Shown: positions 1 through 59,355, counted from the first letter of the stretch. The stretch is DNA of 64,000 nt from Blastocatellia bacterium (GCA_963765495.1 CAVXWP010000016.1:1-64000), one strand, 5' to 3'. Notes: a model not told the origin generated them from the letters alone. A program made the numbers and translations.

Positions 1-1052
1 CTTTATAGGCTTAAACCTATGAGGAACCGTTTGCCTATAAACCCTTACGCTACCATGAAACTCACCTGTATCATCAAACTCGCCCTCAATCAAATGATCA
101 CAATTCTCAAAATCTTCCGGTATGAAGAACGATTTGAAGTCTAACAAATCATATCTCCCGGCGTCATTATCTCCATAAATCCAAAAATAAGTTTTATGTT
201 CCGGGTTATCCGTCTTAAACAAATTAAACAGTCCCACTAAAGCAGACACCGTATGGTTTACTGATATATCATCTTTGTAATCTTCGGTTTCATCACTCTT
301 AGTGAAATTCCGCAAATCAACGATTTGCTGGTCTGGGTTAAATATGACAAACTTCGTAGCATGTGATTTTGTCGGTTCATCAAGTAACTCCTTGATTAGA
401 TCATCAATAATAAAATTCGGCACAACAAGATTATTACATTCGTCGATAATGGTTTTCTTTAATGAGGACTGGTATTTCCAAGGATCCGGTTGATTTTTTC
501 TCGGTGTAGGGAAGTTGCCCAAAAACTCAGCTTTAAGCTCTTGAAACGTATCCTGAAAACTTGAGGCAGAATTAATCGTTTTCAAGGGGATACTTACATC
601 ACTCAAAAACAGATCGTAGTTCTCTAAAATTCGCCAATCAAAGAAAACTGCCTCCAATGGTGTCTCATTTTCTTTGTCAGCATCAGCATTTGAGGGCCTA
701 AATAAGCGACTGCTAATCTGCCAATACCTTTTTCACCCATCTTTACACGAGGTTCTTTGTTCAGGGTTTCTTCGCCTTTTACATCTTCGTCAGGTCTTGA
801 TTTTGCATCAGTCCCAAGTACAAACCACTTTTCTAAAATGTCTTCCCGGTCCATTCCTTTGCCGTCATCTGAAATCACAAAAATAGGCTTTGGAATATCT
901 TTATATCCCTCCATGTAGAGAAAGGCTTCAAGATTATCTCCGTAAGCATCGTAGCCATTCTTCCATAGCTCGGATATAGCTGTTGGCAAATCGGCTATTT
1001 GCCCTTTGCCTAATAGGTCTACGGCTCTTGCTTTTGCTCTAAAATATGCCAC
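1..1052 (-). CDS. GHKL (HATPase_c/MORC-like) ATP-binding protein, frameshifted near 670, runs off window edge
   Basis: ORF 624-1052 has GHKL motifs ELWKNGYDA, DDGKGM and GEKGIGRLA. Adding one A in AAGAAAATGAG (~670) continues as ...KKNETPLEAVFFDWRILENYDLFLSDVSIP... in a frame that stays open to position 1. Confidence 0.8.
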
Positions 1053-15814: not shown

Positions 15815-16576
15815 TCATTCAGCGGCCTTTTGCTCAAGCCCCTTGCGATCAATGATTTTGATTTGCATTCGTCCGATAGTGATAATGCCTGAGTCCTTCA
15901 GCTCATCAAGTGTTTCCGTCACAGTCTCACGAAAGACACCAAGCCTGTCAGCAATATCTTGATGTCTTAATTCTCTTACCTCATCACTGTCGGCCGCTTT
16001 CAACAAGAAAGAAGCTATACGCGAAGCAGCTTCTTTGAACGCGAATTCTTCCAATCCGCGCTCTGCCTCGATCATTCGCTTACCGATTACCTCAAGTATG
16101 CGTAATGCCACCTTTGGCTTTGAGAGTAGCAATTGCTCTACATCGGCGCGATTCATCGTGCAGACCAGAGAATCCTTTTTAGCCCTTGCGAACCTATCGT
16201 ACACTCCCTGCCCAATGCAGCTCATTTCGCCAAAGAATGAGTAGGGATGCAATTCGGCAATTACAAGCCTTCTTCCCCATGCGGACTCGCGGTAAATCTG
16301 CACAATTCCTTTCTTGAGGATATAGAGCATCTGGGAAGTTTCACCAGGCGTAAAGAAGACGCCGCCAGCTTTGCAGGCTCGCATGACCGTGGCGTGTTCA
16401 ATCTCTTCGATTTCTTCCGGGGTCAGGCCCTGAAATATTTCTGCAACCGATAGATCCCCGCCCTTTGATCGTGATTCGGTCTCCTCAACCGATTCTGTTT
16501 CCTCGTCACATCGAACGATTGTATCTACCGACCGATTTCTTGATGGCCTGGTCCTTCTTGATGGTCTTCCTGGCAT
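15815..16576 (-). CDS. Crp/Fnr-family regulator 1
   Basis: cNMP-type barrel (FFGEM) and HTH HQDIADRLGVFRETVT; start codon uncertain. Confidence 0.9.
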   Translation of the reverse strand: MPGRPSRRTRPSRNRSVDTIVRCDEETESVEETESRSKGGDLSVAEIFQGLTPEEIEEIEHATVMRACKAGGVFFTPGETSQMLYILKKGIVQIYRESAWGRRLVIAELHPYSFFGEMSCIGQGVYDRFARAKKDSLVCTMNRADVEQLLLSKPKVALRILEVIGKRMIEAERGLEEFAFKEAASRIASFLLKAADSDEVRELRHQDIADRLGVFRETVTETLDELKDSGIITIGRMQIKIIDRKGLEQKAAE

Positions 16577-19838: not shown

Positions 19839-20630
19839 CTACCGCTTTCGCAGTATCTCCTCTTCGGCCATCTCGCGGAGCCTCTCAGGGTCTAGGATAG
19901 AGATCTCCTTGCGACTTATATCTATGATGCCTTCATCGCGCAGGCTTCCAAGCGCGTTGCTCACCGTCTCGCGATAGACGCCCATCATATCAGCGATGTC
20001 CTGATGACGAATACCATTGATCGGCTGAGCGCCGTTATTTGAGAGTCTCAGCAGCAGAGACGCGACTCGCGCGGGTATTCCTTTGAAGGCGCTGTCACCC
20101 AGTCGCTCTTGCGCGTTGTGCATGCGCTGGCCTATCTCTTCCAGCATCCTCAGGGCAACCTGCGGTTTCATCATCATCAGTCTTTCCACATCCGCCCTGC
20201 CCATAACGCAAACCGTGCAGTCCTCAGCCGCTTCGGCGAACAGATCGTACATGTTCTGACCCACGATAGCCATCTCTCCAAAAAACGTCATCGGGCCGAC
20301 CGTCTGGACTATAAGCTTGCGCCCCTCTAAAGAGAGACGGTACAGATGGACGGAGCCTTTCTTTAACAGGAACAGCACCTCTCCCGTTTCTTCGGGCATA
20401 TAGATGATTTTTCCTTTAGGCGCGGTCGTCATAACCGTCGTGGCATCAATCATCTTCATCTCCTTATGCGAGAGGTCTCTGAATATCCGCATCGCTGAAA
20501 GGTAGGCTACCTTGTTAGATGTATCTGACGGTTGTGCATAGATGGCTTCCGACATTACGGGAGCGGGGCCGGTCGCCGACCTCCCACCGCCAATTAACCT
20601 TGAGATACTTGATAGAAAGCTCTTCTCCAT
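19839..20630 (-). CDS. Crp/Fnr-family regulator 2
   Basis: GGAGG RBS; FFGEM; HQDIADMMGVYRETVS. Confidence 0.93.
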   Translation of the reverse strand: MEKSFLSSISRLIGGGRSATGPAPVMSEAIYAQPSDTSNKVAYLSAMRIFRDLSHKEMKMIDATTVMTTAPKGKIIYMPEETGEVLFLLKKGSVHLYRLSLEGRKLIVQTVGPMTFFGEMAIVGQNMYDLFAEAAEDCTVCVMGRADVERLMMMKPQVALRMLEEIGQRMHNAQERLGDSAFKGIPARVASLLLRLSNNGAQPINGIRHQDIADMMGVYRETVSNALGSLRDEGIIDISRKEISILDPERLREMAEEEILRKR

Positions 20631-20823
20631 CTCTATTCCTCCTTTATCTCTAAATTTACAGCCACAGTGCTGATAAGGCAATGACCACTGTCATACAACG
20701 CTGTAATTGCCGTCCCTTCAGCATAACCCTTGACCGCCCTCCTTCACATGTAATTAAGCAAAAGGTGAACAGGAGGCATTGGTGCGAGACCTCTGCAATA
20801 TGGTTTGAGCGATCACATCTTCA

Positions 20824-22842: not shown

Positions 22843-24639
22843 CTAAGGAACAATCCACTCGCTAACCGGCTCGATCCCGCCTTTGGCCGTATTTGAGAGT
22901 TTGACTATGTAGGCCCCTTTCGAGGCGAACCTTTGACCGACGCCGAGGCTCAGAAAGGGAAAAATACCGGGATTGGGCACTTCCTCCGCTTTATGCTCGA
23001 CGCTTTCAATCAGATAATTCTGAGAGAAGTTTTCAAGAAGCCTGGTCAACGCATGGTCCGCAACCGACAGCGCGAAATAGGTATTGATTTGCAGCCGCTC
23101 ATCGGTTTGCTTGACGTTTCTCGATTTCAACCACCCTCTTATCCGATACAACTGTGGTATTTCATCTTGTGGCAAGGTGAAAGGATAGGTGAAATACATT
23201 TTGCTCCGAAGCGGATCGGTGATCGCTGACAACGGTCCTCTAAACAGGTTGTATGAGAGACAAATCTGCTGCACCTCGTCGCCCACATCTTGCAAGGAAG
23301 TGAGCGATTGCAAGTCTTCCTGAGGGAGCCACAGGATCAGCATCGATGGCCGTTTGGCGCTCACAAGATCCCTCCAGTAATCCGGCGTGAGGCGCTCAGG
23401 AGATTCGACTACCTCATCCTGCAAACCAGTCATGCCAAAATCCTCAAAGGCTTTACGCAAGGCTTGAGCTGGCACCTGGCCGCTCGGTTGGCGACGAAAG
23501 ACTTGCACTATCGGTCGGTCATCCTTCGCGGCGGGCCTATCGTGCAGATAATGCGCAAGGACTTCGGCTTCGGTGGTCAGTCCTTTCGAGTAATAAATGG
23601 TATATGTCCCTGTCGGGGAAATTACAGGCAGATCGGTGTTAGGGAAAAAGCAGGGCAGGTGTGATGATTCACAAAAATCGTGTATGGGGCGCCAGTCGCC
23701 GACGCCTATGCCGCTCAGTAACGCGAAGACCGGCTGATCCTGGTAGTACGCCTTGAGTTGATCATTCCAGGTTTCCGGTGAACCTTTGAGTTCCCAGACA
23801 TGCAGCGTCCACTCACGATAACTCGGCACGTAACTGTCTTTGAACATGAAGGAATAACCGGGGCGGCTCAAAACATGTCGGGTATTCTCATTCTTCCAGC
23901 CGACAAATGCTTGCACCACGTCAAGCATGGCCTGACGCCTTTCCATCGGCACGCCTTCGGTGACAATGGTGGCGAAATGAATTTGGGTCTTCTCCACTCC
24001 CGGAGGCGGGAGCGAAGACAGGGTTTTCAGATAGGCGATGAGATGCCCCATCTCCTTATCACTTAAAGTATAGCGCGGCATGAGAGGATCGAACTCGCGC
24101 CCGGAAGGATCTTTGCCTTCGCGCAACGCCCTTGCCAGGCTCTCGTCCGTATATGCAGGCCGATTGCGCGGAGACTTCAACAATAGTGAAGAGAGCGGCA
24201 GTCGATTCGCACTGGCTCGGGTTTCACTGAGATTCTTGATCAAATCAGCGCGATGCGGCTTGTAGGGTTGAAATAGGGAAGGGCCGGTCACAGGCGGTAA
24301 AAAGCGGCCTCCTTCGTCCGCACCATACCCGCTAAGACGATGGCAGGATGCGCAATTGAGCTGGCTTCCTTCCAGGAGCACATCGCCTTGCACGACGGCA
24401 CGAATCGACTCTCCGGATGACAGAATACCTTCACGATAAATCCGTTCCCCTATTTCGATGTCTGAGACCGCCCCGGGTCGTGAGTGAGAGGACTGGCCTC
24501 GCACGATACCGGTAGCTAATGCAAGAACAGAGATCAGCGTAATACCGCCTGCTCTTAAAGCCGTGCGATAGTGGGAGCTCAAAGACGTGTGTCGAGTGAT
24601 TTTCATAGAGCGATGCCTCCTCTCATTTGCCACAATCAC
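22843..24639 (-). CDS. cytochrome c domain fused to a type 1 periplasmic-binding-like domain
   Basis: Signal peptide, CASCH, LMPRY, then PVFALLSG...PCFFP and RFASKGAYI. Confidence 0.8.
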   Translation of the reverse strand: MIVANERRHRSMKITRHTSLSSHYRTALRAGGITLISVLALATGIVRGQSSHSRPGAVSDIEIGERIYREGILSSGESIRAVVQGDVLLEGSQLNCASCHRLSGYGADEGGRFLPPVTGPSLFQPYKPHRADLIKNLSETRASANRLPLSSLLLKSPRNRPAYTDESLARALREGKDPSGREFDPLMPRYTLSDKEMGHLIAYLKTLSSLPPPGVEKTQIHFATIVTEGVPMERRQAMLDVVQAFVGWKNENTRHVLSRPGYSFMFKDSYVPSYREWTLHVWELKGSPETWNDQLKAYYQDQPVFALLSGIGVGDWRPIHDFCESSHLPCFFPNTDLPVISPTGTYTIYYSKGLTTEAEVLAHYLHDRPAAKDDRPIVQVFRRQPSGQVPAQALRKAFEDFGMTGLQDEVVESPERLTPDYWRDLVSAKRPSMLILWLPQEDLQSLTSLQDVGDEVQQICLSYNLFRGPLSAITDPLRSKMYFTYPFTLPQDEIPQLYRIRGWLKSRNVKQTDERLQINTYFALSVADHALTRLLENFSQNYLIESVEHKAEEVPNPGIFPFLSLGVGQRFASKGAYIVKLSNTAKGGIEPVSEWIVP

Positions 24640-25340
24640 GGGTTGATGATCTGGCGGTATTCAGATGCAAGGTCTTCGGCGCTCATCAGGCCATCGAGAC
24701 GCACCCAGGCGTCTTGTGGTGAAGCACGAAGATAGGTTAGCGGCTCGTGCGCCATCTTGGTGTCGCGAAAGGCATCCAATGCCCGTTGGAGGGCATGAAT
24801 ATCCTCGCGCCTGCCGGTCAGGAAATGCCACTGCGCGCCGGCCTTGAATTTTTGCGCGTACTCTTTCAGTCGCGCCGGCGTATCGTATTCCGGGTCAATC
24901 GAAATCGACACCATTCGCAGCTTGTCCAGATCATCCTTGAGTTTGCCCTGAGCCGCCGAGAAGATGCCGCTAAGGGCCGGGCAGATCGTCGGGCAGGTGG
25001 TAAAGATGAATTGCACAAGTATGGGGCCGCCGTAGTTTAATTCGGAATCCAGCGTCACTTTGTCGTTGTTCATATCGACCAGAGTGATTTCTGGAAGTTC
25101 ATACTTTCGGACGGTGCGGAAGTAGCGCTTCCGCGTCGCCTGTTGCTGCATATGCTGCATGTGGGCTTGGTGGTCATGTTGTAGGCCGATCGGTTGAGCG
25201 TAGATCGCAGCCTCTTTGCTCATTGGCAGGGCCACTACCATTGCTATGATGGATGCAAATATAAACAGTCTTAGCCCAATTCCCGCAAGCCATGATGAAG
25301 ATTTTGTCATGATGATTCTCCCGGTATTTCTCTGACCCAT
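24636..25340 (-). CDS. SCO1/SenC copper chaperone
   Basis: FTTCPTICP, SIDPEYDTP, WHFLTG, conserved His and His/Met-rich N-region. Confidence 0.92.
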   Translation of the reverse strand: MGQRNTGRIIMTKSSSWLAGIGLRLFIFASIIAMVVALPMSKEAAIYAQPIGLQHDHQAHMQHMQQQATRKRYFRTVRKYELPEITLVDMNNDKVTLDSELNYGGPILVQFIFTTCPTICPALSGIFSAAQGKLKDDLDKLRMVSISIDPEYDTPARLKEYAQKFKAGAQWHFLTGRREDIHALQRALDAFRDTKMAHEPLTYLRASPQDAWVRLDGLMSAEDLASEYRQIINP

Positions 25341-25914: not shown

Positions 25915-26122
25915 CGCCTTGATATAGTCTCGATCGCGTTCTTTCACGGCCCTGAGCATAATCGAACAATTGGGTATAGGGACTAAGCCAGAGGGCAGAT
26001 AGCGGTGCTCATGGTGATAGTGACTACTATCGATATTCAAACGCTGGGAAAAGCTTTTTTCGGAAGACCAGGAGCAGGGAAGCCGAGATTAGCCTTTTCT
26101 CGGACCAATGGAGAAAGAAACT

Positions 26123-27754
26123 ATGCCTAATAGACGAGACATTATCAAGCTAGGACTCCTGACGGGGGGAGCGGCTGTCGTGAGCCCGAGTGGTGCGTTA
26201 GCGCAACTCTGCGGTCCAGATGGGACTCCTCCCTACCCACCGAGTCCCCCGACTCAACCCTTCTTGACTCCGCTTTTTATCATGCCGATAGCGCAGCCGG
26301 TGAATCCACGATCGCTCAATCCGGCCCCTGATCCTTCAAGGCATCAGCGTTGGGATGATTTCCCTCCACAAAAATATTACGTCGCGCACGAAACGGCGTT
26401 TATGTGGAGCTATCACCCGGAAATGCCCCCGACGCCGCATTGGGGCTTCGATGGAATCACGCCCGGGCCGACATTCCATGCGCGCTACGGCGAGCCAGTC
26501 TTCCTGCGCCGCTATAACGATCTGCCGCCAAGTCAGGTTGGCTTCGGTTTGAATTCGACGACCATCCACCTGCACAACGCGCACACGGCATCGGAAAGCG
26601 ACGGCAATCCTCTGGATTGGAAAGATTCGGGCCATTTCTGGGATCATCATTACGCAAACGTCCGTGCCGGTTACGATCGCTACGGCGGCAACGGCGATCC
26701 TCTGGAGACGATGACGACGCTCTGGTATCACGATCATCGCATGGAATTTACCGCCGCCAATGTCTATGCCGGATTGACGGGATTTTACCTGCTCTTCGAC
26801 GAGCGCGACACTGGCAACGAGAATGATACGAGCCCGGATGCCTATAGATTGCCGAGCGGCAAATACGATGTGCCGTTAATCCTACACGACGTTCAATTCC
26901 TGCAGAATGGCCAGGTCTTCTTTGATCCCTTCAACACGGACGGCTTTCTCGGAGACAAGTTTACCGTCAATCGTAAGATTCAACCCTTCTTCCAGGTCGA
27001 GGCCCGCAAGTACCGCTTCCGCATCCTGAACGGCGGTCCGTCGCGCTTCTACAGTCTCTTCCTGAGCAACAACGACAAATTTATCCAGTTGTCGAACGAC
27101 GGCAACCTGCTGCCTGAGCCGATTGCGGTTGACCGCCTGGATCTATCCGTGGCGCAGCGCATGGATGTGGTGATCGATTTTTCCAAGTACGCGCCGGGAA
27201 CGCAGCTTTATCTGGTCAATCGCCTTGAGCAGGTCAACGGCAAAGGACCGACCGGAAAGCTAATCGATCCGGGCGACCAGATCATGCGCTTCGACGTCGT
27301 CCGGCGAACAGGGCTGGATCGAAGCCGCATTCCAGACAAGTTCCGTGAGTTGCCGGCGGTTGATTTGAGCGAGGTGGTTCAGGAGCGCTTCTGGCGTTTC
27401 GACTACGACGGCGGTTTGTGGACGGTCAACGGCAAGCCGTTTGAAATGGACCGCATTGATGCCGAGATCAGACGCGGCACGGCCGAGGTCTGGACGATCA
27501 GAAATGAAGGCACGAGCTGGTCACACCCTGTGCATATTCACTTCGAAGAGTTCCAGATTCTGGAGTTCAACGGCAAGACGATTGCTCCAGGCACCTCGGA
27601 TTACTCCAGGAAAGACGTGCTGACGCTTGGGCCGAACGACGAAGTGAAACTCTTCTTTCGGTTCAGAGACTTCCTGGGTCGTTACGTGATGCACTGCCAT
27701 AACGTCGTCCACGAAGATCACGCCATGATGATCCAGTGGGTGATTGTGCCCTGA
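26123..27754 (+). CDS. Tat-exported multicopper oxidase (bilirubin oxidase/CotA-like)
   Basis: RRDIIK signal; IHLH, WYHDH, HPVHIH and HCHNVVHEDHAMM. Confidence 0.95.
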   Translation: MPNRRDIIKLGLLTGGAAVVSPSGALAQLCGPDGTPPYPPSPPTQPFLTPLFIMPIAQPVNPRSLNPAPDPSRHQRWDDFPPQKYYVAHETAFMWSYHPEMPPTPHWGFDGITPGPTFHARYGEPVFLRRYNDLPPSQVGFGLNSTTIHLHNAHTASESDGNPLDWKDSGHFWDHHYANVRAGYDRYGGNGDPLETMTTLWYHDHRMEFTAANVYAGLTGFYLLFDERDTGNENDTSPDAYRLPSGKYDVPLILHDVQFLQNGQVFFDPFNTDGFLGDKFTVNRKIQPFFQVEARKYRFRILNGGPSRFYSLFLSNNDKFIQLSNDGNLLPEPIAVDRLDLSVAQRMDVVIDFSKYAPGTQLYLVNRLEQVNGKGPTGKLIDPGDQIMRFDVVRRTGLDRSRIPDKFRELPAVDLSEVVQERFWRFDYDGGLWTVNGKPFEMDRIDAEIRRGTAEVWTIRNEGTSWSHPVHIHFEEFQILEFNGKTIAPGTSDYSRKDVLTLGPNDEVKLFFRFRDFLGRYVMHCHNVVHEDHAMMIQWVIVP

Positions 27755-27773
27755 GGAAAGGAGAGTAAGAGCG

Positions 27774-28463
27774 ATGAAAAACAGAAGAGATGTACTTGCG
27801 ACCCTGGCGAAGGGCGCACTGGCGGTTCCCGGCCTTGCACTGATCAATCGGATGTCGGCCAGCGCCGATTCACCCAGTAAATACTGTGTACCCTGTGCGA
27901 AGCCCTATAGCGGAATGAGCGCCCTTTATTTCCCGAATGTAGTTGTGCGCACACACGAAAACGAGAAGGCGCTCTTCTACAAGGACCTCGTCAAGGGAAA
28001 GATACTGATGATCAACTTTATGTCCGTGAGTGGTGATTCGATCTATCCCGTGACCGAGAACCTGGCAAAGGTACAACGCCTCCTCGGGGACCATTCGGGC
28101 CGCGATGTCTTTATGCTATCAATCACGACCAATCCGGAGCATGACACACCGGCAGTCCTCAAAGAGTTTGCAACGAAATACGGCGTTCGGCCAGGCTGGC
28201 ATTTCCTGACCGGCAAGCCTGCCGATATTCGCACAATCAAAGAGTCGATATTTGCCCACCGCAGCCATTCGAACCAGGGTGGCCATGCAGATCATCACGG
28301 CAGTTCGGGAGTGATCGAAGATTGCTCTGTTGGACTGGTGCGGTATGGCAACGAAGCGCTGCAAACCTGGGCATCTTGCCCGGCCAAGGGAAAGCCTGAA
28401 AACATCGTCAAGCGACTGGCCTGGGTCGGGATGCCAGCAGAGGTGGCAAGCCGGAAGTCCTAA
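27774..28463 (+). CDS. SCO-like protein lacking CxxxC
   Basis: RRDVL Tat-like signal, SITTNPEHDTP, WHFLTG; FMSVSGDSIYP replaces FTxCxxxCP. Confidence 0.85.
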   Translation: MKNRRDVLATLAKGALAVPGLALINRMSASADSPSKYCVPCAKPYSGMSALYFPNVVVRTHENEKALFYKDLVKGKILMINFMSVSGDSIYPVTENLAKVQRLLGDHSGRDVFMLSITTNPEHDTPAVLKEFATKYGVRPGWHFLTGKPADIRTIKESIFAHRSHSNQGGHADHHGSSGVIEDCSVGLVRYGNEALQTWASCPAKGKPENIVKRLAWVGMPAEVASRKS

Positions 28464-33104: not shown

Positions 33105-33902
33105 CTAGTGTCGGCGCAGCGTCTCTTCTTCGGCCAATTCGCGAAGTCTCTGCATATCAAGAACAGAGATCTCTTTGCGGTTGATATTGATGATGCCTTC
33201 ATCACGGAGCCGGCCCAGAGCATTGCTCACCGTCTCACGATAGACACCGATCATATCAGCGATATCCTGGTGCGTCACTTCTTTGATTGTTTGCGTATCA
33301 TTCTGGGAGAGGCTGAGCAATAACGTAGCGACTCGGGCTGGTATTCCCTTAAAGACGCTATCGCTGAGCTTAGCCTGTGCATTGTGCATACGCTGGCCGA
33401 TTTCTTCGAGCATGCGAAAAGCAACCTGCGGCCTCATCAGCATTAGTCGTTCAATATCTGCCCGTCCCATTACACATATCGTGCAGTCCTCCGCCGCTTC
33501 AGCAAACAGGGTGTACATATTCTGACCAATGAGCGCCATCTCCCCGAAAAAGGTCATTGGCTCGATCACCTGGATGACCAGTTTACGCCCTTCCGCCGAG
33601 AGGCGATACAGATGGACCGAGCCCTTCTTGAGCATGAAAAGTATCTCGCCCGTTTCGCCCGGCATGTAAATAATTTGACCTTTGATTGCCGTCTTCATGA
33701 CGGTCGAGTCAATGATCATCTGCATCTCATTTTTCGAAAGGTCGCGAAAAATACGAAAGGCTAAAAGGTACCCCACTTTAGTCGGCTCGTCAGCCAAGGC
33801 CGCAGTAATGACGTCTGAAGTTGCGGCCGCCGTTGTCTGCTCCATCCCTGATCTTCGACCGCCGAGCAATCGTGAAAAGGTTGATAAAATACTTTGTGCC
33901 AT
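33105..33902 (-). CDS. Crp/Fnr-family regulator 3, close paralogue of regulator 2
   Basis: Long near-identical blocks shared with 19839-20630 (LKKGSVHLYRLS, LFAEAAEDCT, FKGIPARVA, HQDIADM.GVYRETVSNALG). Confidence 0.93.
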   Translation of the reverse strand: MAQSILSTFSRLLGGRRSGMEQTTAAATSDVITAALADEPTKVGYLLAFRIFRDLSKNEMQMIIDSTVMKTAIKGQIIYMPGETGEILFMLKKGSVHLYRLSAEGRKLVIQVIEPMTFFGEMALIGQNMYTLFAEAAEDCTICVMGRADIERLMLMRPQVAFRMLEEIGQRMHNAQAKLSDSVFKGIPARVATLLLSLSQNDTQTIKEVTHQDIADMIGVYRETVSNALGRLRDEGIININRKEISVLDMQRLRELAEEETLRRH

Positions 33903-34092
33903 TTCTGGATACTCCTTACTTTTGATATGGAACCCGAAGCCAATAAAAGCCGTAGTGTTGGCCACAACCCAGCTTGAATGCTTGTCAAAAGTATATACCA
34001 ACAATGGTGAAAACTTATTGCCAAATTGGAAATAAGGGAGTCAGATCGTGATAGAGTATTTACAGTTGGAAATGGTGTTTATATATACCTAC

Positions 34093-40057: not shown

Positions 40058-40059
40058 CT

Positions 40060-40143
40060 GAATCGTGATGCGTGACTTTCAGGAAGGCTGCTGTTAAAGA
40101 TAAATTGCAAATCCGGTAAATCACGCATCACGCATCACGATTC
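40060..40143. repeat. inverted heptamer (TCACGCA) repeat pair 1
   Basis: CGTGATGCGTGA...TCACGCATCACGCATCACGA. Confidence 0.75.
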
Positions 40144-41502
40144 ACTTTCAATGATGCCTCGTTCGATCAGGTACTGAAGCGCCTGAATGATCCTCAAATC
40201 CGTAGCTGGATTTTTGCTCGCTCTCTTGAATTCGGAAACGACTTCGTGCGCCGGACGTGGCGCGACGCACAGATCGCACAAAAGCTTTAAATCCGACACA
40301 GGCAAATGCATCGAGAGCTTTTCTATTCGAGCGTCTGTCTCGGCAGATTGGAAATGTATCGCCTGCCTGGGGTCGAGAGTGATGCGCGAGTGACGGCGCT
40401 GCCAGAAGGGCGAAGCCTCCCACCTTCGTTCCCTGCCGTAATAATCCATCCTCGTAGCCAGATAATTTTCAAACTCCCCGGCAATGATCTCTTCGTATTT
40501 CTCAAGCCCCGCCCGCTCGCCTTTGAAATAATCACAGACGGCAAAAGAGGCAAGTATCCCCGAACGCAACGCCTTGAATATTCCCTGCGAAGAGAGAGGA
40601 TCGACAGTCGTCGCGGCATCGCCTGCGGCAAGCCATCCGCCGCCCGTCAGGCAATCGAGCCGGTGAGAATAAGCCGGATAGATGCGAGGCCGATATTCCG
40701 GTCTGCCGTGAACCGCGCGGGCTCTTGTGTGAGGGGAATTGTTCAGACATTCGAGCCAGCAAGACGCGGATTTCAAACCGTGTTTCCTGACTATATCGAC
40801 ATCGGTCATGCAGGCAAAGACCATCCTGTTTTCGGGAAGCAGGGCCGAATACCACCAGCCCTCTTCCCACGCTTCCACAAGCGTGTAGGTGTCTGTCGCC
40901 GAAGCGCCCGCGTCCATACGGAAGAAGACGAATACGCCGAGCAACTGATCGAAGAGCACCCGCCTCGCCCCCTGCCTTGTGGCGAACGCAACACGCCTGC
41001 CCGTAGCGTCTATTACGAAAGAGGCTTCCAGATTTATTCTCTGTTTGTCTGCGGTTTCAGCCGTGATTTGCCACAGCCCCCCATTGGTCTTATGCGAGCC
41101 CGTGACCAGAGCGCCGGTATACACCTTGGCTCCTCGGCTTTCGGCCTGGCGCGCAAGCATGGAATCGAACCGGGCGCGGTCCAGATGCCAGCCTCGTCCG
41201 TAGGGGTGGTAGATAAATTCGTTGTCTAGCAGTTCGTCGCTTCCCCACACCGAGCGCGTGCCGTAGGCCGCAATGTGCCTTTCATTCAAAAACTCATCCC
41301 AGATTCCCAGTTGTTCGAGGAGGGCCTGAGCGACGGGCGTAAGCGTTTCCCCTATGCGGAGGCGGTCGTAGTTTGAGGCTTCAATTATGGCGACTGATAA
41401 ACCCGGCGATTGCTTTCTCAAAGAGAGCGCCGCAGCCGTCCCGGCCGGACCTCCCCCGAGAATCACTACATCGTAACGCACTGCTCTTTCTTTATCGCTC
41501 AA
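40135..41502 (-). CDS. lodB: LodB/GoxB-like FAD-dependent oxidoreductase
   Basis: GGGPAG, IGETL, GWHLDRARFD, DATGR, GWWY and GDAA..DPLSSQGI; downstream of a lodA-like gene. Confidence 0.85.
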   Translation of the reverse strand: MSDKERAVRYDVVILGGGPAGTAAALSLRKQSPGLSVAIIEASNYDRLRIGETLTPVAQALLEQLGIWDEFLNERHIAAYGTRSVWGSDELLDNEFIYHPYGRGWHLDRARFDSMLARQAESRGAKVYTGALVTGSHKTNGGLWQITAETADKQRINLEASFVIDATGRRVAFATRQGARRVLFDQLLGVFVFFRMDAGASATDTYTLVEAWEEGWWYSALLPENRMVFACMTDVDIVRKHGLKSASCWLECLNNSPHTRARAVHGRPEYRPRIYPAYSHRLDCLTGGGWLAAGDAATTVDPLSSQGIFKALRSGILASFAVCDYFKGERAGLEKYEEIIAGEFENYLATRMDYYGRERRWEASPFWQRRHSRITLDPRQAIHFQSAETDARIEKLSMHLPVSDLKLLCDLCVAPRPAHEVVSEFKRASKNPATDLRIIQALQYLIERGIIESES

Positions 41503-41520
41503 TTGATCTTTTGATTGCCG

Positions 41521-41955
41521 CTATTGGGCGCTGCCCTGTCTGACGGCTATCCACGAAGCGACCACCCCGGCAGGCGAGACTCCGCCGCTGCCGCTCGAAT
41601 GCGGAATCGCGCGAACTATCGAGCCGACCATCGCCGGTATCTGGTTCACCCCGTTGGGCCACGGAAGCACTACATAGCCTACGTAGTCGTATATCCACTC
41701 TTCGCCGCCGACCAGCCCCTTACCCTGAAAACGTACGGTGAACGGGTCGCCGTAATTGATCGAGCCGTTGAGGTCGAGTTGCCATCCCGTACCGTAAATC
41801 AAGCCCTTGAACCGATTCATCGGCGCGGCATCAACCCTTATGTTGCCCAGTCCGAATTCGAGATCGTTGAAAGATGTCGAAGGGTCCGGGTCGTTCAGGA
41901 AACTGCGATAGGTCCACGTCCCGACCAGTATTCCATTATTTGGTTCGCTGCTCAT
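41521..41955 (-). CDS. 144-aa hypothetical beta-rich protein
   Basis: AAGGAG RBS; LVGTWTYRSF, WIYDYVG and GVVASWIAVR. Confidence 0.8.
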   Translation of the reverse strand: MSSEPNNGILVGTWTYRSFLNDPDPSTSFNDLEFGLGNIRVDAAPMNRFKGLIYGTGWQLDLNGSINYGDPFTVRFQGKGLVGGEEWIYDYVGYVVLPWPNGVNQIPAMVGSIVRAIPHSSGSGGVSPAGVVASWIAVRQGSAQ

Positions 41956-41989
41956 CTTCTCTCCTTCGCGTTAAAGCGAACTGTTTTTA

Positions 41990-42081
41990 ATGCGTGATCC
42001 ATGATGCGTGATGCGTGAGACTTGAAGTTTTCTGTTAAAAGGAATCCCTCCTTCAGGTCACGGATCACGCATCACGAATCA
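41990..42081. repeat. inverted heptamer repeat pair 2
   Basis: TGCGTGATCCATGATGCGTGATGCGTGA...TCACGGATCACGCATCACGAATCA. Confidence 0.75.
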
Positions 42082-42111
42082 TTGCCGATCTATCGCCATT
42101 GCCGACAATAT

Positions 42112-44232
42112 TCAAATATTCTCATCATTGCGCTCCACCTGAATAAAAGGCGGATAGCCGTTTTCGGCCGTGGCCTCGGGGTTGTCGCGTATAAAGCCGA
42201 GTTCTTTCCAGGCCGTGACCATCTTTTGATCCCCGGCGTGAGTCTGCGGGATTCCCTGCGACCACGAAACCTGACTGTATGACAGAGGCGCGCCGGGGGG
42301 TGTGGGAATCTGCTGATTGACCTCCATAGGCCGGTGCGCGGGCCACCAGAAGGTGGTTTGAAACACCTGCTGCACGGGATCGCCCGTCGTGTCGGGGTAA
42401 AGCTCGTTCCAGTCTTCGTAGGTGATATTTACGCTCTGGGTCGAGCACTCGTTGAAGTCGGATTGCCACGGCACGCCGCTGTATTTAGTGATGTCTCCCG
42501 GCTCAAGTCCCGTCGCCAGATCGCCGGTCAGGCTCAACGGGTTGGGCGTGGACGATTTCAACGTAGTCAATGAAAAATTGGGACTCTGTTTTATGCGATA
42601 GGCTTCGGAGTAAAGCGCCGGGTTTCGCATTATCCAGCAGGCTTCGCCTCCCGGACAAAAGGCCCCGCCAAGCAGGTTGCTCAAGACTCCCCGATCAAGG
42701 TCCGCGCCCGTCTTTGAGGACTCTTCGGGGTCGGTTGTCGGGATGTCTTCTTTCTTCTCGTTTATGAATTTACCTTCGGCCCACTGTTTCAGGATGAAGA
42801 GTTGCGTGTCGGTGAGTCGCAAAAATTTTGAAGGAACCGTATTTGAAAGCGGGTTGTCGCCGCATAGAAAGGGCATGCCTACGGGTTTGTAATTCGGGTT
42901 TTTCGGATCAGACGTAAAGTCCCAGAGGTTCTCCTGTCCGGGCTTGCGCAGAACGGCGTAAAGCTTTGCGCGCCACAGCAAACGCCTGCCTCTCTCTTCC
43001 GGGTTTTCTCCTTCAAAGGGCGGTATGGAAAGAAGCTCGGGGTCGAAATTGCCATGGAGCCCCGGCGTGGTGTCGTGCGGGTCGCCGCCCGTGAAGTAAT
43101 CGAAATCCATGACCCATTTATAGTTGTCGGGCCGGGTCAGGATCGGCCACACGTCGCGCCAGAAATACGGATAATAATCAGGATTCCACTCGGCCTGCGC
43201 CCGCCATAACGCGAGCGCGTCTGCATTCTCAGGGTCGGGCGGCGGCTGGCTCCCGTCAAAAGGAGGCACGCCGTACATGTAGGTGTTGTAGCCGAATTCT
43301 CTGACCGATAGATCATAAACAAGATCGTCCATCGTCACTATATCGACTATCTGAGGCGCGTAGCGCGGATAGCCTACGATGACCCAGGCCGGAACGTCCA
43401 CGTTTAAGTAGAGAGTCGGGGGCGTGGCCGGGTCGGGCGGGCGTCCATCTTCGCTGATGACTTTGTATTTGACGCGGGCCATCACGGGGCCGTCCGATAT
43501 GTCGTCGAACCACCCGTCGTTGTTGGCATATTGCTTGATGACCGGTTCTCCGAATCCCGTCTTGTAAGAACCGGAATTCCCATAGCCCCCGAGCACAAGC
43601 AGACGGTTATGGTGGTCCTGCTCGGTGACGAGCAATTCGCCCAGCGTGTCGATTGATAGCGGCGTAAGAGGCGGCGGGAATGATTGCGTGTAGCCGGGAT
43701 TTGACCCGCGCGCAAATTGAGCCGTGCGCTGTTTCTTGTTTGTATAGCTTACGGTTTGCGGGCCGGGGTCAATTATCAACTGTTGTCTTTCGTCGTTGCC
43801 TTCGACATCCGCATTGCGCAGAGGGTGATCGGGCGCGTAGCCGTGTTCGCCGTCGAGTTGCTTGAACTCGTACCAGCTTGATTTCTTGTTGGCCAGATAG
43901 ACGGTCCACTCAATGTCAACGACTTCGCCGACCATCTCCTGCCCCGTCTTCGGGCTTACGGTCGTGATCTTTTCGCCTATCTCGATCTCCTTCCCGCTGC
44001 CGTCGTCGTCATAGGCGTAAACGCGAAAGCGAGCGGCCTGTCTCATCACGCGCTGCTGGGAATCTTTGAAGCTCGACACGGGTTGTTCTTTCCCGTCGGG
44101 AGAGAGTACGGGGTTGCCCGCCTGATCGCAGGCGATCGGGAGATGGCCCGCTCGCTCCGGTGCTATATAAAAATCGGTAGTGCTGTTTCCAACGCGGGCG
44201 ATTCCAATCGCGGGATGAATCTTAAATCTCAT
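42112..44232 (-). CDS. lodA: LodA/GoxA-family CTQ-dependent amino acid oxidase
   Basis: IHPAIGIARVGNS, RQAARFR, LANKK, NNDGWFDDISDGPV, GGAFCPGGE, PWQSDFNEC (Asp/Cys) and WWPAHRP (Trp). Confidence 0.93.
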   Translation of the reverse strand: MRFKIHPAIGIARVGNSTTDFYIAPERAGHLPIACDQAGNPVLSPDGKEQPVSSFKDSQQRVMRQAARFRVYAYDDDGSGKEIEIGEKITTVSPKTGQEMVGEVVDIEWTVYLANKKSSWYEFKQLDGEHGYAPDHPLRNADVEGNDERQQLIIDPGPQTVSYTNKKQRTAQFARGSNPGYTQSFPPPLTPLSIDTLGELLVTEQDHHNRLLVLGGYGNSGSYKTGFGEPVIKQYANNDGWFDDISDGPVMARVKYKVISEDGRPPDPATPPTLYLNVDVPAWVIVGYPRYAPQIVDIVTMDDLVYDLSVREFGYNTYMYGVPPFDGSQPPPDPENADALALWRAQAEWNPDYYPYFWRDVWPILTRPDNYKWVMDFDYFTGGDPHDTTPGLHGNFDPELLSIPPFEGENPEERGRRLLWRAKLYAVLRKPGQENLWDFTSDPKNPNYKPVGMPFLCGDNPLSNTVPSKFLRLTDTQLFILKQWAEGKFINEKKEDIPTTDPEESSKTGADLDRGVLSNLLGGAFCPGGEACWIMRNPALYSEAYRIKQSPNFSLTTLKSSTPNPLSLTGDLATGLEPGDITKYSGVPWQSDFNECSTQSVNITYEDWNELYPDTTGDPVQQVFQTTFWWPAHRPMEVNQQIPTPPGAPLSYSQVSWSQGIPQTHAGDQKMVTAWKELGFIRDNPEATAENGYPPFIQVERNDENI

Positions 44233-44283
44233 TGCGTATCTCCTAAGTCAAACAATCCGTCAGTCCTTAAAAGGTGCGGGATA

Positions 44284-44342
44284 GCCACAGAGACACAAAG
44301 GCACAAAGAATAAAAATCTCTGTGTCTCTGCGCCTCTGTGGC
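44284..44342. repeat. palindromic octamer-type intergenic repeat
   Basis: GCCACAGAGACACAAAGGCACAAAG...CTCTGTGTCTCTGCGCCTCTGTGGC; related copy at 63474-63876. Confidence 0.75.
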
Positions 44343-44372
44343 CAAAATCTTCCTCAATCTGAAACTCATACG

Positions 44373-46478
44373 TCAGTCTTTGAAATTCAGCGAGACGCCG
44401 TCCAGCCACAGCGCATTCGGTTTCGGAGTGCCGTCTATGTCCATTACTACCAGATTGATCTGAAAATCGGTCTCGCCTTTTTTACTCAACCTCTCGATAG
44501 CCTCGGTCGCGTCAACACGGAAGTTGCCGGGGGTTTTGTGATGGCGCGATCTTAAATCAAACTTTCTGCGAGTCGGGGGCGGAACATCGCAGTGACCGGG
44601 ACCGCCTATGCACGCCTCGCCCGAAAAGGTCGCTATCTGCGCCACGAAATGATCGTTGCCGCGTGTGGGCGTATCTACGTTGGCATCGGGCTGATTGAGA
44701 AAGACGCGGATGAAAGCGCCGCCGCCCACCGAATACTGGACCTTGTGCAACCTTATGTCGGCGCATTTGTGGTTTGCCAGAACCGCCGGGTGAACTCCCG
44801 CCTTTGCCGATTTGAAGCGCGTGATCGGTATGGAACTGTCTGTCTCGAACAGATGAGAATTTTTCATGTATTCGTAACCGAGCGTTGCCGTGCTGTAGCT
44901 CTGCTTGACATCGAGCGTCCACGGCGCGAGGATATCGGTCGGGTCATCGGGGCTGCCGCCCGGATGCAGCGACTGCCATTCGGCCCACAGCCGATCTACG
45001 TTGCTGTGATGCCCCCAGAAGATCGGGTCTTTTGCCGTAGTCCCCGCAGACACCATATCTCCGTATTGCGGCTCGTTTGGATTCCCGCTCGCGTATTGAG
45101 GATTCGCGCCGCCCGAAAAGTTGTGGATAAGGTTATGGATGTTTTCGACCGCGCCAAAGAAATGATTTGTGGCCGGGCCGCTGCCAAAGGTGTAGAAGTT
45201 TTTTAACTGCAAAACGCGCTGAACGTCCTGCTCGGTAGGATAAGCCTCAAAGATCAGTGATTCGTTCCCGCCCGGCCATCGCCGTCTGTGCCAGAGCGGG
45301 TTGGCCGCCTGTAGCGCGGTCATGATCTCTTCGGTGGCCGGATCGTTATAATCTATCTTGGCCGCAGCCAGTAACCTGTTGCCCGAATTGTATGTCGTAT
45401 CCTTGATGTTTTTGAGCTTCATCCACGTGTCGGGCGAAATCTTCTCTTTCAACGCATCGAGCACATCCTGATTCACAAAACAACGATACGCCTTTGGAAT
45501 CACGCCGTTGTCGAGCGGCTTTGCCGACTTTTGATCCTGGATCGATTTCAGCACGTCCTGCCTGTACATAGGCCAGTCCCAGTAGGGGAGCGTCACCGTG
45601 GGGTCGATGTCTTGCAACTGCTGCTCGAAATAATAGAGGTAGACTCTGTGCCACGTGAGAAACTGTTCCCAGCCGTGCTGGCAGTTATTTGCGTGGATGT
45701 CGGCCCAGTATTCAAAGCTCCTGTCGTCATAGCGAAAGAACTTGTCATAGCAGTGCATGACCCTGACCGCGCGCCGGAACCGCGTAAGCTCATCTTCGGT
45801 CAGGCACTCGATGTTTTTGCGGAATTTTACTTTCCCGGATTCAGCGCGATACTCGTTGACCGAGCGCGTCGAAAGCGGGTGCTCTTCGTGCCCCTGCGCT
45901 CGCGCAATCTTTACTGGTTGCGTCACTTCAATCGTAGCCTTATGCTCATCGGTTGCGGGGCAGCCGTCATCAATCCAGTTCTGAATAAATAGAATATCCG
46001 AACTTGAAACCGCCTTTCCTCCCCACGGCAGCCGGGGGAATTGCGTGCCGTCGAAAGGAAATTGCCCTTTAAGCCCCTTTATCAACCCGGAGGCCGCGCC
46101 GCGTCCCGGCGAAGGCAAGACTTCGGGCGTGCCGCTCGCCTGCGGGCCGCAACAGGAATCCATTTGAACAGGGAGGCTTGAGGGTGGCGACGAAGGTTGT
46201 GGGGCGCTTTCAGATGCGGATTCGCAGCACGAGCCATGAGACGAAGCGGCAGGCAGCATATTCTGTTCGCAGAAATCCTGCGAGCCTTCCTCAGCTATCA
46301 TGCGAACGCCGTAAATGGTGACTTCCAGAAATTCTTCGAGCGGCAATTCCCAGAATCTCTCATACCCCTGATAACTGGGGCAGGCATCCCCGGCCGCCTC
46401 GTTTAGAATCTCTTTGACTCGCTCATAGCGCGTTTGCTTCTGTGGTCCTTCTTGCGTGTCTTGATTCTTATTGCCCAT
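44373..46478 (-). CDS. tyrosinase (type 3 copper) with long N-terminal extension and C-terminal shielding-type domain
   Basis: GAGGAGG RBS; CuA HANNCQH...FLTWHR; LPYWDW; CuB HNLIH...DPIFWGHHSNVD. Confidence 0.92.
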   Translation of the reverse strand: MGNKNQDTQEGPQKQTRYERVKEILNEAAGDACPSYQGYERFWELPLEEFLEVTIYGVRMIAEEGSQDFCEQNMLPAASSHGSCCESASESAPQPSSPPSSLPVQMDSCCGPQASGTPEVLPSPGRGAASGLIKGLKGQFPFDGTQFPRLPWGGKAVSSSDILFIQNWIDDGCPATDEHKATIEVTQPVKIARAQGHEEHPLSTRSVNEYRAESGKVKFRKNIECLTEDELTRFRRAVRVMHCYDKFFRYDDRSFEYWADIHANNCQHGWEQFLTWHRVYLYYFEQQLQDIDPTVTLPYWDWPMYRQDVLKSIQDQKSAKPLDNGVIPKAYRCFVNQDVLDALKEKISPDTWMKLKNIKDTTYNSGNRLLAAAKIDYNDPATEEIMTALQAANPLWHRRRWPGGNESLIFEAYPTEQDVQRVLQLKNFYTFGSGPATNHFFGAVENIHNLIHNFSGGANPQYASGNPNEPQYGDMVSAGTTAKDPIFWGHHSNVDRLWAEWQSLHPGGSPDDPTDILAPWTLDVKQSYSTATLGYEYMKNSHLFETDSSIPITRFKSAKAGVHPAVLANHKCADIRLHKVQYSVGGGAFIRVFLNQPDANVDTPTRGNDHFVAQIATFSGEACIGGPGHCDVPPPTRRKFDLRSRHHKTPGNFRVDATEAIERLSKKGETDFQINLVVMDIDGTPKPNALWLDGVSLNFKD

Positions 46479-46532
46479 AAGCCTACATCCTCCTCTCTGA
46501 AGACGCTCCAAGAGTGGATTTGTGAAAGGTCT

Positions 46533-46750: not shown

Positions 46751-46801
46751 GCCAATGATCGCTCTAATGCTATAATCAGTTTTCGACCTCTGGATTCTTA
46801 T

Positions 46802-59321: not shown

Positions 59322-59355
59322 AGTGTAATTTGAGACCTGAGATTTGAAAGTTCGA

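Follow-up and report, generated by a model that had tools for sequence, protein, structure and literature searches.

A conserved cassette of tyrosinase, LodA-like, predicted small barrel and LodB-like genes in a Blastocatellia bacterium and in related loci of nine phyla

Why should a copper tyrosinase be encoded together with a LodA-like CTQ protein and a LodB-like flavoprotein, and what is the small protein encoded among them? The question arose from a stretch of 64,000 nt from a Blastocatellia bacterium (GCA_963765495.1, CAVXWP010000016.1:1-64000; hereafter the window). A preliminary description, made from the sequence alone, had named a tyrosinase-LodA-unknown ORF-LodB operon and proposed that the two oxidases act in one pathway.

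Proteins of the cassette

Domain matches, co-orientation and synteny bore out the four-gene operon. The cassette at 40135-46478 is real and widely conserved, and its four co-oriented genes all lie on the minus strand:

44373..46478, minus strand: three-domain type-3 copper tyrosinase, 701 aa from ATG, Pfam Tyrosinase
42112..44232, minus strand: LodA-like CTQ quinoprotein of the tyrosinase-linked clade ('group ID'), 706 aa, LodA_N and LodA_C
41521..41955, minus strand: small protein, predicted eight-stranded avidin/lipocalin-like beta-barrel, 144 aa
40135..41502, minus strand: LodB-like FAD flavoprotein, predicted CTQ maturase, 455 aa

By coordinates, the intergenic gaps are 140 nt (tyrosinase/LodA-like), 156 nt (LodA-like/small ORF) and 18 nt (small ORF/LodB). 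The cassette is flanked by M28 peptidase and BatA/VWA genes. Inspection by eye revealed no signal peptide on any of the four proteins, as had been stated for the two oxidases, and in each the conserved core begins within about 15 residues of the start. No multicopper oxidase was found in or beside the operon. The window's sole multicopper oxidase (26108..27754) lies 12.4 kb away, flanked by SCO1/SenC genes, and is of another type, with motif-level similarity only to the cassette-linked one.

The tyrosinase was matched by Pfam Tyrosinase (PF00264) with an E-value of 1.5e-36. An alternative TTG start at 46628 would give 751 aa; the ATG originally chosen is the likely start, because homologues begin near residue 13-17 of the 701-aa form. 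Conservation was judged on 65 and 43 homologues. Both of the His triads attributed earlier to CuA and CuB are kept (H262/H268/H277 and H448/H452/H491), all six His being invariant in the alignment of 43 sequences, and the core also carries a C-x-H (CQH) motif at CuA. The N-terminal domain (~215 aa, conserved CC and GCP motifs) gave no family match. The C-terminal domain (~190 aa) has an invariant CxGGPGHC motif, and its match to the Pfam hemocyanin beta-sandwich was not significant (E 0.25). PDB matches comprised mollusc hemocyanin units and bacterial tyrosinases (PDB 1wx2 at E 7.9e-21). Mollusc hemocyanin functional units and fungal tyrosinases, taken together as the known system with the best PDB sequence matches, have in common with this protein Cys-x-His at CuA and a domain C-terminal to the core; a Cys-His thioether is listed for tyrosinase, hemocyanin and catechol oxidase (PMC11951088). 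Streptomyces MelC1/MelC2 likewise pairs a small helper protein with a tyrosinase of related core in one operon, but here the small protein is a predicted barrel without sequence match to any solved chain, and the tyrosinase, unlike that of Streptomyces, has N- and C-terminal domains of its own. The MelC1 caddie has a different fold and is exported by the Tat route.

Pfam matches to the LodA-like protein were LodA_N (1e-59) and LodA_C (2.1e-44). In the alignment to PDB 3weu, SDFNEC fell on LodA D512...C516 and FWWP on W581, D592/C596/W630 being the counterparts of D512/C516/W581. Alignments of 19 and of 45 sequences show no variation at D592, C596, W629 or W630, which upholds the earlier assignment of D-x3-C and WWP as CTQ residues. 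Equivalents of LodA Tyr211 and Cys448 are kept, and the position of Lys530 is occupied by Glu. The domains, the CTQ-site Asp, Cys and Trp and the adjoining lodB-like gene together indicate membership of the LodA-like family. LodA/LodB of Marinomonas mediterranea (PDB 3WEU/2YMW) and GoxA/GoxB have the same two domains, the same three residues and a directly downstream partner flavoprotein. Identity with LodA proper (L-lysine epsilon-oxidase, NCBIfam NF038172) was rejected at 355.1 bits against a cut-off of 600, as was identity with GoxA (glycine oxidase, NF038173) at 171.7 bits against 750. On the LodA model the six closest representatives scored 284-330 bits, and 13 other representatives passed the cut-off. 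The LodA phylogeny that had been called for placed the tyrosinase-linked proteins in one clade, sister to true LodA (FastTree 100; IQ-TREE SH-aLRT 100); placement within the LodA clade was rejected in favour of this sister position (support 100).

The flavoprotein was matched by Pfam Trp_halogenase and FAD_binding_3. Its best family match was NCBIfam maturase_LodB at 309.6 bits, below the equivalog cut-off of 400, followed by GoxB (255.2 bits) and QhpG (175.2 bits). A C-terminal extension of ~85 aa (40135..40392) gave no Pfam match; most relatives are without it, and it aligns in 5 of 72 loci.

The small protein

The 144-aa protein had no family match in Pfam or NCBIfam, and no solved relative was found by profile search. 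No other protein of the cassette is as conserved; it has 1158 homologue clusters, the best 120 of which are 69-100% identical to it. Homologues in the related loci described below are 41-81% identical, only L008 (41%) and a truncated copy in L047 (48%) falling below 50%. An AlphaFold2 model built from a 52-sequence alignment has eight strands and a pLDDT of 90.3. Fold comparison gave Z 13.2 to a designed barrel (rmsd 2.5, 104 aligned), Z 11.6 to zebavidin, an avidin (rmsd 4.0, 104 aligned), and Z 9.7, lower than avidins, to residues 43-189 of PvdP. PvdP chains formed the top rows in Foldseek, with weak scores (E 0.012, TM 0.49), and the match to PvdP is no better than that to many unrelated eight-stranded barrels. 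The protein is thus predicted, from its model, to be an avidin/lipocalin-like up-and-down barrel of eight strands. Membership of the Avidin or lipocalin sequence families was rejected, with no Pfam or NCBIfam match. A nearest Atlas cluster is named 'lipocalin-like', but the nearest clusters show no prevalent Pfam family.

Barrel homologues recur beside or within copper oxidases. Among 25 longer homologues, nine carry the barrel N-terminal to multicopper oxidase domains, five of these nine also having a tyrosinase, and six of the 25 are barrel/oxidase proteins with fused peroxiredoxin domains; many fused proteins are single-member records and possibly gene-calling artefacts. The fused tyrosinases are only 22-48% identical to the window's over parts of the core and are without its N- and C-terminal domains. 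Locus L137 has a distant LodA/LodB pair, and next to it a small-protein homologue immediately precedes a different tyrosinase; other gene orders are small-tyrosinase (L024) and small-multicopper oxidase-tyrosinase (L010, L016). PvdP, the periplasmic pyoverdine-maturing tyrosinase of Pseudomonas aeruginosa (PDB 6EYS, 6RRP), also combines a tyrosinase with an eight-stranded barrel; in the cassette, however, the barrel is a separate protein, and PvdP is periplasmic and has no CTQ partner. It oxidises a tyrosine bound within a peptide, and the resulting o-quinone goes on to react with an adjacent amine (PMC6206403). For the former 'unknown ORF', the best present description is a predicted avidin-like barrel associated with copper oxidases.

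Distribution of the cassette and the published group ID operons

Synteny was surveyed around the 80 best of 592 LodA-like relatives in species genomes, spanning nine phyla; each gene was counted only in loci with enough flanking DNA, and the denominators differ accordingly. In 77 of 77 loci the gene immediately upstream of the LodA-like gene, and co-oriented with it, is the tyrosinase, and wherever at least 2400 nt of upstream sequence were available (69 of 69 loci) all three of its regions are present. LodB was found in 65/65 loci and the small gene in 62/71. Median gaps are short (tyrosinase-LodA ~30 nt, LodA-small 13 nt, small-LodB about -7 nt). In control loci of true-LodA relatives LodB is equally constant (66/66), whereas the tyrosinase (1/47) and the small gene (1/77) are all but missing. 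An arrangement recurring in 77/77 related loci is far beyond chance, and with 77/77 against 1/47 the objection that the tyrosinase might not be conserved beside this clade fails. Functional coupling of the tyrosinase and the CTQ enzyme is strongly supported.

Nine of 71 loci lack the small gene, which was lost at least five separate times and is therefore not essential everywhere; in three of five such genomes searched it was not found elsewhere. A linked multicopper oxidase is present in at least 28 of 41 well-flanked loci and is thus not universal either, and DJ-1/PfpI genes occur in 10 of the 41. No other conserved biosynthetic genes, and no conserved candidate substrate protein, were found in the related loci. 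The cassette has spread horizontally on repeated occasions. Over 39 loci, distance matrices of tyrosinase and LodA-like protein correlated with r = 0.93 (partial 0.84), against 0.65 for LodA-like protein and LodB; these values carry no significance test, the former draws equally on the tyrosinase core and C-domain, and it may reflect no more than a shared deep split. By eye, the linked multicopper oxidases and the fused barrel forms carry signal peptides and the four cassette proteins do not, which leaves a mismatch of compartment.

The same layout was published as 'group ID' lodA-like operons by Campillo-Brocal et al. (2015; PMC4417212), small gene included, and the preliminary description was correct in stating that tyrosinase linkage had been noted for some lodA-like loci. 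The window locus is a member of this group and its layout is not new. In group ID operons, for example that of Bradyrhizobium japonicum USDA6, the order is tyrosinase, lodA-like, a small gene of ~140 aa and lodB-like. Their LodA-like proteins fall in the same clade as the window's, and members share more than 50% identity in the small protein; to the window's copy, those of Bradyrhizobium loci L070 and L074 show 64% and 61% identity. The operons of PMC4417212 also hold a multicopper oxidase, unlike the one here, and the LodB here has the extra C-terminal stretch. That study sampled 10-11 genomes, compared with 80 loci from nine phyla in the present survey.

A proposed shared pathway and its alternatives

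Our main reading, based on synteny and given a probability of about 0.55, is that the cassette encodes a single pathway for oxidation of an amine as well as a phenol, in which the barrel assists the copper oxidase. From what is known of the families, LodB would complete CTQ on the LodA-like protein, which would deaminate a primary amine oxidatively to the aldehyde, with release of ammonia and hydrogen peroxide. Free L-lysine is an improbable substrate; unpublished observations reported in PMC4417212 record no lysine oxidase activity in cultures of a group ID organism. The tyrosinase would hydroxylate a phenol and then oxidise it to the o-quinone. Judging from the genomic context, both enzymes would act on one molecule or on successive ones that bear amine and phenol groups; a peptide, or a compound resembling tyrosine or tyramine, would qualify. 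As for the small barrel, it may assist the copper oxidase by binding a ligand or substrate, in which case it would resemble the N-terminal barrel of the peptide-tyrosinase PvdP, except that it is supplied as a separate protein. Since the four proteins have no visible signal peptides, the first steps would be cytoplasmic, and in those loci that link a secreted multicopper oxidase the product would be oxidised or polymerised extracellularly by that enzyme. The interpretation offered in the preliminary description is, overall, partly supported: the coupling of the two oxidases stands, and the chemistries put forward there, namely action on DOPA or catecholamines, supply of peroxide and cross-linking of aldehydes with quinones, are candidates.

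The location of the proteins bears on another reading, in which the two oxidases are separate and merely co-regulated, as in M. mediterranea. The LodA-like protein would then make peroxide for competition or biofilm dispersal, and a melanin-like pigment, formed by the tyrosinase and, where present, the multicopper oxidase, would protect the producer. That no signal peptide was visible on any of the four proteins sits awkwardly with an extracellular antimicrobial, although LodA of M. mediterranea is also reported to be extracellular without one. Peroxiredoxin domains in the long barrel/oxidase forms and DJ-1/PfpI genes near the loci fit a role for peroxide, and group IB/IC proteins generate peroxide in biofilms (PMC4417212). 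Co-regulation alone, however, explains neither why adjacency and order stay invariant through nine phyla and repeated horizontal spread nor why only one LodA clade shows the linkage, and we consider such separate roles unlikely.

The cassette might instead cross-link proteins and harden a coat, sheath or matrix, with peptidyl lysine as the target of the LodA-like enzyme, in the manner of lysyl oxidase, peptidyl tyrosine as that of the tyrosinase and phenols as that of the multicopper oxidase. LodA converts the epsilon-amine of lysine to an aldehyde, which is the chemistry of animal lysyl oxidase. Three kinds of cross-linking oxidase would be brought together where the multicopper oxidase is linked, and PvdP sets a bacterial precedent for a tyrosinase acting on peptide-bound tyrosine (PMC6206403). 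Against this, the loci hold no conserved candidate substrate protein, the four proteins appear cytoplasmic, and the small protein is a predicted folded barrel without invariant lysines. Cross-linking therefore seems quite improbable.

Strict one-to-one linkage and the distance correlation, higher for the tyrosinase than for LodB, also fit a tyrosinase that is directed at protein: it would dock on the LodA-like enzyme through its extra domains and help to build CTQ, for example by oxidising a 7-hydroxy-tryptophan intermediate, itself a phenol, to the quinone, or by supplying copper for the first hydroxylation. For LodA/GoxA, LodB/GoxB take a mono-7-hydroxy-Trp as substrate, and in LodA this residue is thought to form autocatalytically, with a dependence on copper (PMC7876137). 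Two conserved extra domains with Cys/His motifs, the missing signal peptide and the absence of other conserved biosynthetic genes in the loci agree with such a partner. True LodA and GoxA, however, make CTQ with the flavoprotein alone (PMC7876137; PMC11951088), and since LodB is kept in 65/65 loci CTQ synthesis has no evident gap to fill. Among 120 of 327 long LodA relatives there was no tyrosinase-LodA fusion, and the correlation does not single out the C-domain from the core. A part for the tyrosinase in building CTQ is a long shot. A slightly longer one is that in this clade the tyrosinase, rather than being a small-molecule enzyme, serves the LodA-like enzyme alone as a protein-modifying partner, docked through its conserved N- and C-terminal domains to oxidise the protein-bound 7-hydroxy-tryptophan or to bring in the copper, with the barrel holding the substrate loop or a released product. 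If that were true, the protein-modifying tyrosinase would be the first copper enzyme shown to help build a tryptophylquinone cofactor.

The four genes and their surroundings

The cassette consists of four minus-strand genes, separated by gaps of 140, 156 and 18 nt from the tyrosinase to LodB.

Genes of the cassette
44373..46478, minus strand: tyrosinase, 701 aa from ATG (alternative ORF start TTG at 46628); Pfam Tyrosinase, 1.5e-36
42112..44232, minus strand: LodA-like protein, 706 aa; Pfam LodA_N, 1e-59, and LodA_C, 2.1e-44
41521..41955, minus strand: small protein, 144 aa; no Pfam match
40135..41502, minus strand: LodB-like protein, 455 aa; Pfam Trp_halogenase, 1.9e-23, and FAD_binding_3, 8.5e-16

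The preliminary description had read these genes as an operon with the tyrosinase His sets, the CTQ (cysteine tryptophylquinone) residues and a LodB flavoprotein, and every checkable point was confirmed using Pfam, NCBIfam, an alignment to 3weu and conservation among homologues. The best NCBIfam matches were LodA for the LodA-like protein (355.1 bits, cut-off 600) and the LodB maturase for the LodB-like protein (309.6 bits, cut-off 400); since both scores lie below cut-off, neither protein is an equivalog. In the alignment to 3weu, SDFNEC of the LodA-like protein was aligned with D512...C516 of LodA and FWWP with W581; equivalents of LodA Tyr211 and Cys448 were present, and the position of Lys530 was occupied by Glu. 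D592, C596, W629 and W630 of the LodA-like protein were invariant across two family alignments.

The tyrosinase His triads (H262/H268/H277 and H448/H452/H491) were invariant in 43 homologues. A Cys two residues ahead of the second CuA His was conserved as fully, as were the CC pair of the N-terminal domain and the CxGGPGHC motif of the C-terminal domain. In fungal tyrosinases and hemocyanins, this Cys-x-His motif at CuA gives rise to a thioether; a 2025 review lists the Cys-His link for tyrosinase, hemocyanin and catechol oxidase (PMC11951088). The top PDB matches were mollusc hemocyanin units, followed by bacterial tyrosinases. The N-terminal domain had no Pfam match and Atlas scores of at most 0.86, used as leads only; the hemocyanin beta-sandwich Pfam match of the C-terminal domain was non-significant (E 0.25). 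The LodB-like C-terminal extension of about 85 aa (40135-40392) was alignable in just 5/72 related loci (L008, L026, L027, L036 and L043). By eye it has a small helical or winged-helix look; a PqqD-like peptide-binding domain, suspected from this appearance, was not matched in Pfam. Promoter and terminator scanning of 39900-46900 gave nothing exceeding shuffled expectation.

The flanks are unrelated to the cassette, with a converging M28 peptidase on one side and diverging BatA/VWA genes on the other. A multicopper oxidase (MCO) gene lies 12.4 kb from lodB, bracketed by SCO1/SenC copper-chaperone-like genes (region 24636-28463), and has motif-level similarity only to the MCOs linked to the cassette elsewhere.

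Multicopper oxidase region of the window
24636..25340, minus strand: SCO1/SenC copper-chaperone-like gene
26108..27754, plus strand: MCO; Cu-oxidase_2, 4.6e-20; 28 bits to PF07732 (Cu-oxidase_3) in hmmscan
27744..28463, plus strand: SCO1/SenC copper-chaperone-like gene

A whole-genome PF07732 search of G000, the genome of the window, missed this MCO, a false negative, and the blank was not used. The same genome holds a second, shorter tyrosinase-domain gene (G000:C8:568123-568341, open frame 349 aa) with no LodA-like gene linked. Three DDE transposase genes (6127-7359, 9427-10260 and 34118-35011) and a cytosine DNA methylase (1052..2113) are present in the window, and the region looks mosaic. 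A redox gene cluster at 10620-15733 encodes cytochrome P460-like, FGE-sulfatase-like and AhpC/TSA peroxiredoxin proteins, a cytochrome b fused to two cytochrome c domains and a further cytochrome c. Crp-family regulators are encoded at 15815..16576, 19839..20681 and 33105..34004. At 58227-63342, an AurF-like di-iron N-oxygenase adjoins an M19 membrane dipeptidase, together with a 912-aa S9 prolyl oligopeptidase carrying a C-terminal FGE-sulfatase-like domain.

Conservation of the linkage and LodA phylogeny

Tyrosinase-linked lodA-like genes were described as 'group ID' by Campillo-Brocal et al. 2015 (PMC4417212). [quoted passage not shown] Among papers outside subscription journals, none was found that has since assigned a function to the clade, and the 2025 review lists LodA, GoxA and QHNDH as the only CTQ enzymes (PMC11951088). 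The architecture has been in print since 2015, and the window locus is another member; the additions here are how widespread and how strict the linkage is, that the MCO and the small gene are optional, the predicted barrel fold and the copper-oxidase fusions.

Relatives were collected by an alignment scan with the LodA-like protein (one genome per species), yielding 592. The best 80 of these were kept and fell into nine phyla (33 Acidobacteriota, 27 Pseudomonadota, 9 Bacteroidota, 4 Gemmatimonadota, 3 Verrucomicrobiota and four singletons). Loci were screened by tblastn using the window proteins as queries (E <= 1e-5), and 80 metagenome loci around true-LodA relatives were used as control.

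Genes linked to the LodA-like gene in the relatives
Tyrosinase C-domain directly upstream, same strand: 77/77 loci with at least 700 nt upstream
All three tyrosinase regions: 69/69 loci with at least 2400 nt upstream
LodB: 65/65 loci with at least 2500 nt downstream (60 on the same strand within 2 kb)
Small gene: 62/71 loci with at least 700 nt downstream (58 directly behind the LodA-like gene)
MCO: at least 28/41 loci (lower bound) with at least 8 kb on both sides
DJ-1/PfpI gene: 10/41 loci with at least 8 kb on both sides

Median gaps across loci were about 30, 13 and -7 nt. The functional coupling of tyrosinase and LodA put forward in the preliminary description, which had also suggested this survey and a LodA phylogeny, holds: linkage to a tyrosinase was absolute in the relatives and found in 1/47 control loci. 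The small gene was found in 1/77 control loci, and LodB directly downstream in 66/66. The sole control exception, L137 (5995-14268), has a distant LodA (813 aa)/LodB pair followed by a homologue of the small protein (41% identical), a tyrosinase and a SCO1/SenC gene. Its tyrosinase, with HEAT repeats, differs from that of the cassette; the small protein and a tyrosinase were here recruited jointly into another LodA lineage.

A membrane protein of about 150 aa adjoins the cassette in 12 loci (e.g. L040:7342-7824 and L027:5676-6107), with a conserved PKCPxC motif opening a hydrophobic stretch. It had no family match apart from a faint MerTP-like one (E 0.07) and is possibly a transporter of metal (copper). 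In 11 loci (e.g. L030:13819-15438), mainly from Bacteroidota, Alphaproteobacteria and Methylococcaceae, lodB is followed by a protein of about 540 aa and no known family that is exported or lipoprotein-like.

The LodA-like protein of the window matches 2016 representative clusters. Thirteen of 35 representatives scanned exceeded the LodA equivalog cut-off, and the six nearest to the window scored 284-330 bits. In a FastTree phylogeny of 93 rows, omitting twelve loci in which the LodA ORF was short or unclustered, 68 tyrosinase-linked proteins including that of the window formed a single clade (support 100), sister to a clade containing all 13 equivalogs. A second, divergent paralogue at L014 was placed elsewhere on a long branch. 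IQ-TREE (52 rows) recovered the same two clades with SH-aLRT of 100 each. The tree is incongruent with taxonomy, and among relatives of the window the gene was found in 4/24 genomes of the same family and in 0/16 from the remaining families of that class, which marks the cassette as accessory and mobile.

A large subclade has LodA-like proteins of 860-950 aa through an insertion of about 150-250 aa (L038, L040, L044-L051, L054-L061, L065, L067, L069, L075, L077, L079, L080, L082 and L083), and the tyrosinase core at these loci is just 32-38% identical to that of the window. The LodA-like protein of L044, labelled Heliomicrobium, has a tree position nearly identical to that of L040, a Blastocatellia MAG, which points to faulty binning or to transfer of very recent date.

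The small protein, its fold and its fusions

The small protein has 1158 homologue clusters; in the best 120, identity is 69-100% and length 140-146 aa. Of the four proteins it has diverged least (mean distance 0.61; LodA-like protein 0.80, tyrosinase 0.99, LodB 1.17). Eighteen residues, including W14, Y16, S18, W87, Y89, Y91, R115 and H119, were invariant in a 52-sequence alignment. AlphaFold2 with this alignment predicted a confident eight-stranded barrel (pLDDT 90.3); folding from the single sequence (pLDDT 43) was of no use. Foldseek gave nothing under E 0.001 for the model, the top rows being PvdP tyrosinase (E 0.012) and avidins. An exhaustive structural aligner returned a designed barrel (Z 13.2), avidin (11.6), the barrel domain of the QHNDH alpha-subunit (11.2) and PvdP residues 43-189 (9.7). 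A profile search against solved structures gave chance-level rows only. The predicted fold is an avidin/lipocalin-like barrel, and function is not given by fold alone. The small gene was absent from 9/71 loci, was not found elsewhere in the genome for 3/5 such genomes searched, and has been lost at least five separate times; this absence and the repeated losses count against an essential role.

The barrel was found in 25 longer proteins. Nine of these have it between a signal peptide (by eye) and MCO domains, and five of the nine also contain a tyrosinase; the fused tyrosinases and oxidases are merely distant relatives of those of the operon. DUF4440 occurs in nine of the 25, seven being short exported barrel-DUF4440 proteins, a peroxiredoxin domain in six and a Rid domain in two. 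A LodA_C fragment precedes the barrel in one long protein, and LodB fragments follow it in two. Many fusion records are singletons and some could be gene-calling errors; for the oxidase fusions, the recurring domain order argues against this. Giant exported proteins of 760-1800 aa (P0274, P0277, P0278, P0280-P0282, P0290, P0294 and P0295) carry barrel, DUF4440, Rid, MCO, peroxiredoxin and tyrosinase domains in strings, and some are named Pirellulaceae, Pirellulales or Urbifossiella.

Gene orders include small-tyrosinase (L024) and small-oxidase-tyrosinase (L010 and L016). Together with L137 and the fold resemblance to PvdP, these orders tie the barrel more to phenol-oxidising copper enzymes than to LodA/LodB. 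Fusions of 1240-1700 aa are found in other LodA-like clades (P0297-P0416), mostly with PF14518 (iron-containing redox enzyme domain). Several of these proteins are fused to MCO domains (P0324, P0331, P0351, P0387, P0402 and P0416), and five of the latter contain galactose-oxidase-like domains as well; LodA-like enzymes are thereby associated with copper oxidases a second time, independently.

Proposed pathway and significance

PMC7876137 describes completion of CTQ by LodB from a 7-hydroxy-Trp intermediate, and on this basis and from family membership LodB would finish CTQ on the LodA-like protein from the same intermediate. As expected from their families, the mature LodA-like protein would convert a primary amine to aldehyde, peroxide and ammonia, and the tyrosinase a phenol to an o-quinone. 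The absolute, clade-specific linkage indicates that the two reactions belong together. Most likely they form one pathway whose target, a compound or a peptide, bears an amine as well as a phenol, and in which the barrel assists the copper enzyme by binding its substrate. PvdP is the precedent: this tyrosinase forms an o-quinone on a peptide, which then reacts with an adjacent amine (PMC6206403). By eye, the linked MCOs have signal peptides whereas none is visible in any of the four cassette proteins; this fits a cytoplasmic start with an outside finish, but also amounts to a compartment mismatch. Complex prediction for tyrosinase and small protein (score 0.00) gave no answer and carries no weight on binding either way.

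More boldly, the tyrosinase may have the LodA-like protein itself as its substrate. Their distance matrices were correlated with r = 0.93, compared with 0.65 for LodA-like and LodB, which would suit such a partnership; however, the correlation is spread across all tyrosinase domains and r carries no significance test. Furthermore, a tyrosinase-LodA-like fusion was not seen among the 120 listed of 327 long LodA relatives.

To our knowledge, lysine and glycine oxidases are the only members of the large LodA-like quinoprotein family to have been studied, and within the family gene context is most informative on function for the tyrosinase-linked clade. This clade is far wider than the 10-11 genomes of 2015, with 80 loci in nine phyla and 1158 clusters for the small protein alone. 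The absolute tyrosinase linkage, the optional MCO and the repeatedly fused barrel, which is likely a substrate-binding piece, define a minimal four-protein set for expression. Culturable carriers for genetics are Bradyrhizobium, Methylobacter tundripaludum, Nitrosomonas, Sphingomonas elodea and Labrys. If both oxidases share a substrate, the cassette would represent a novel path to quinone/amine-derived products; should the quinoprotein be the target of the tyrosinase, the picture of cofactor formation would be revised.
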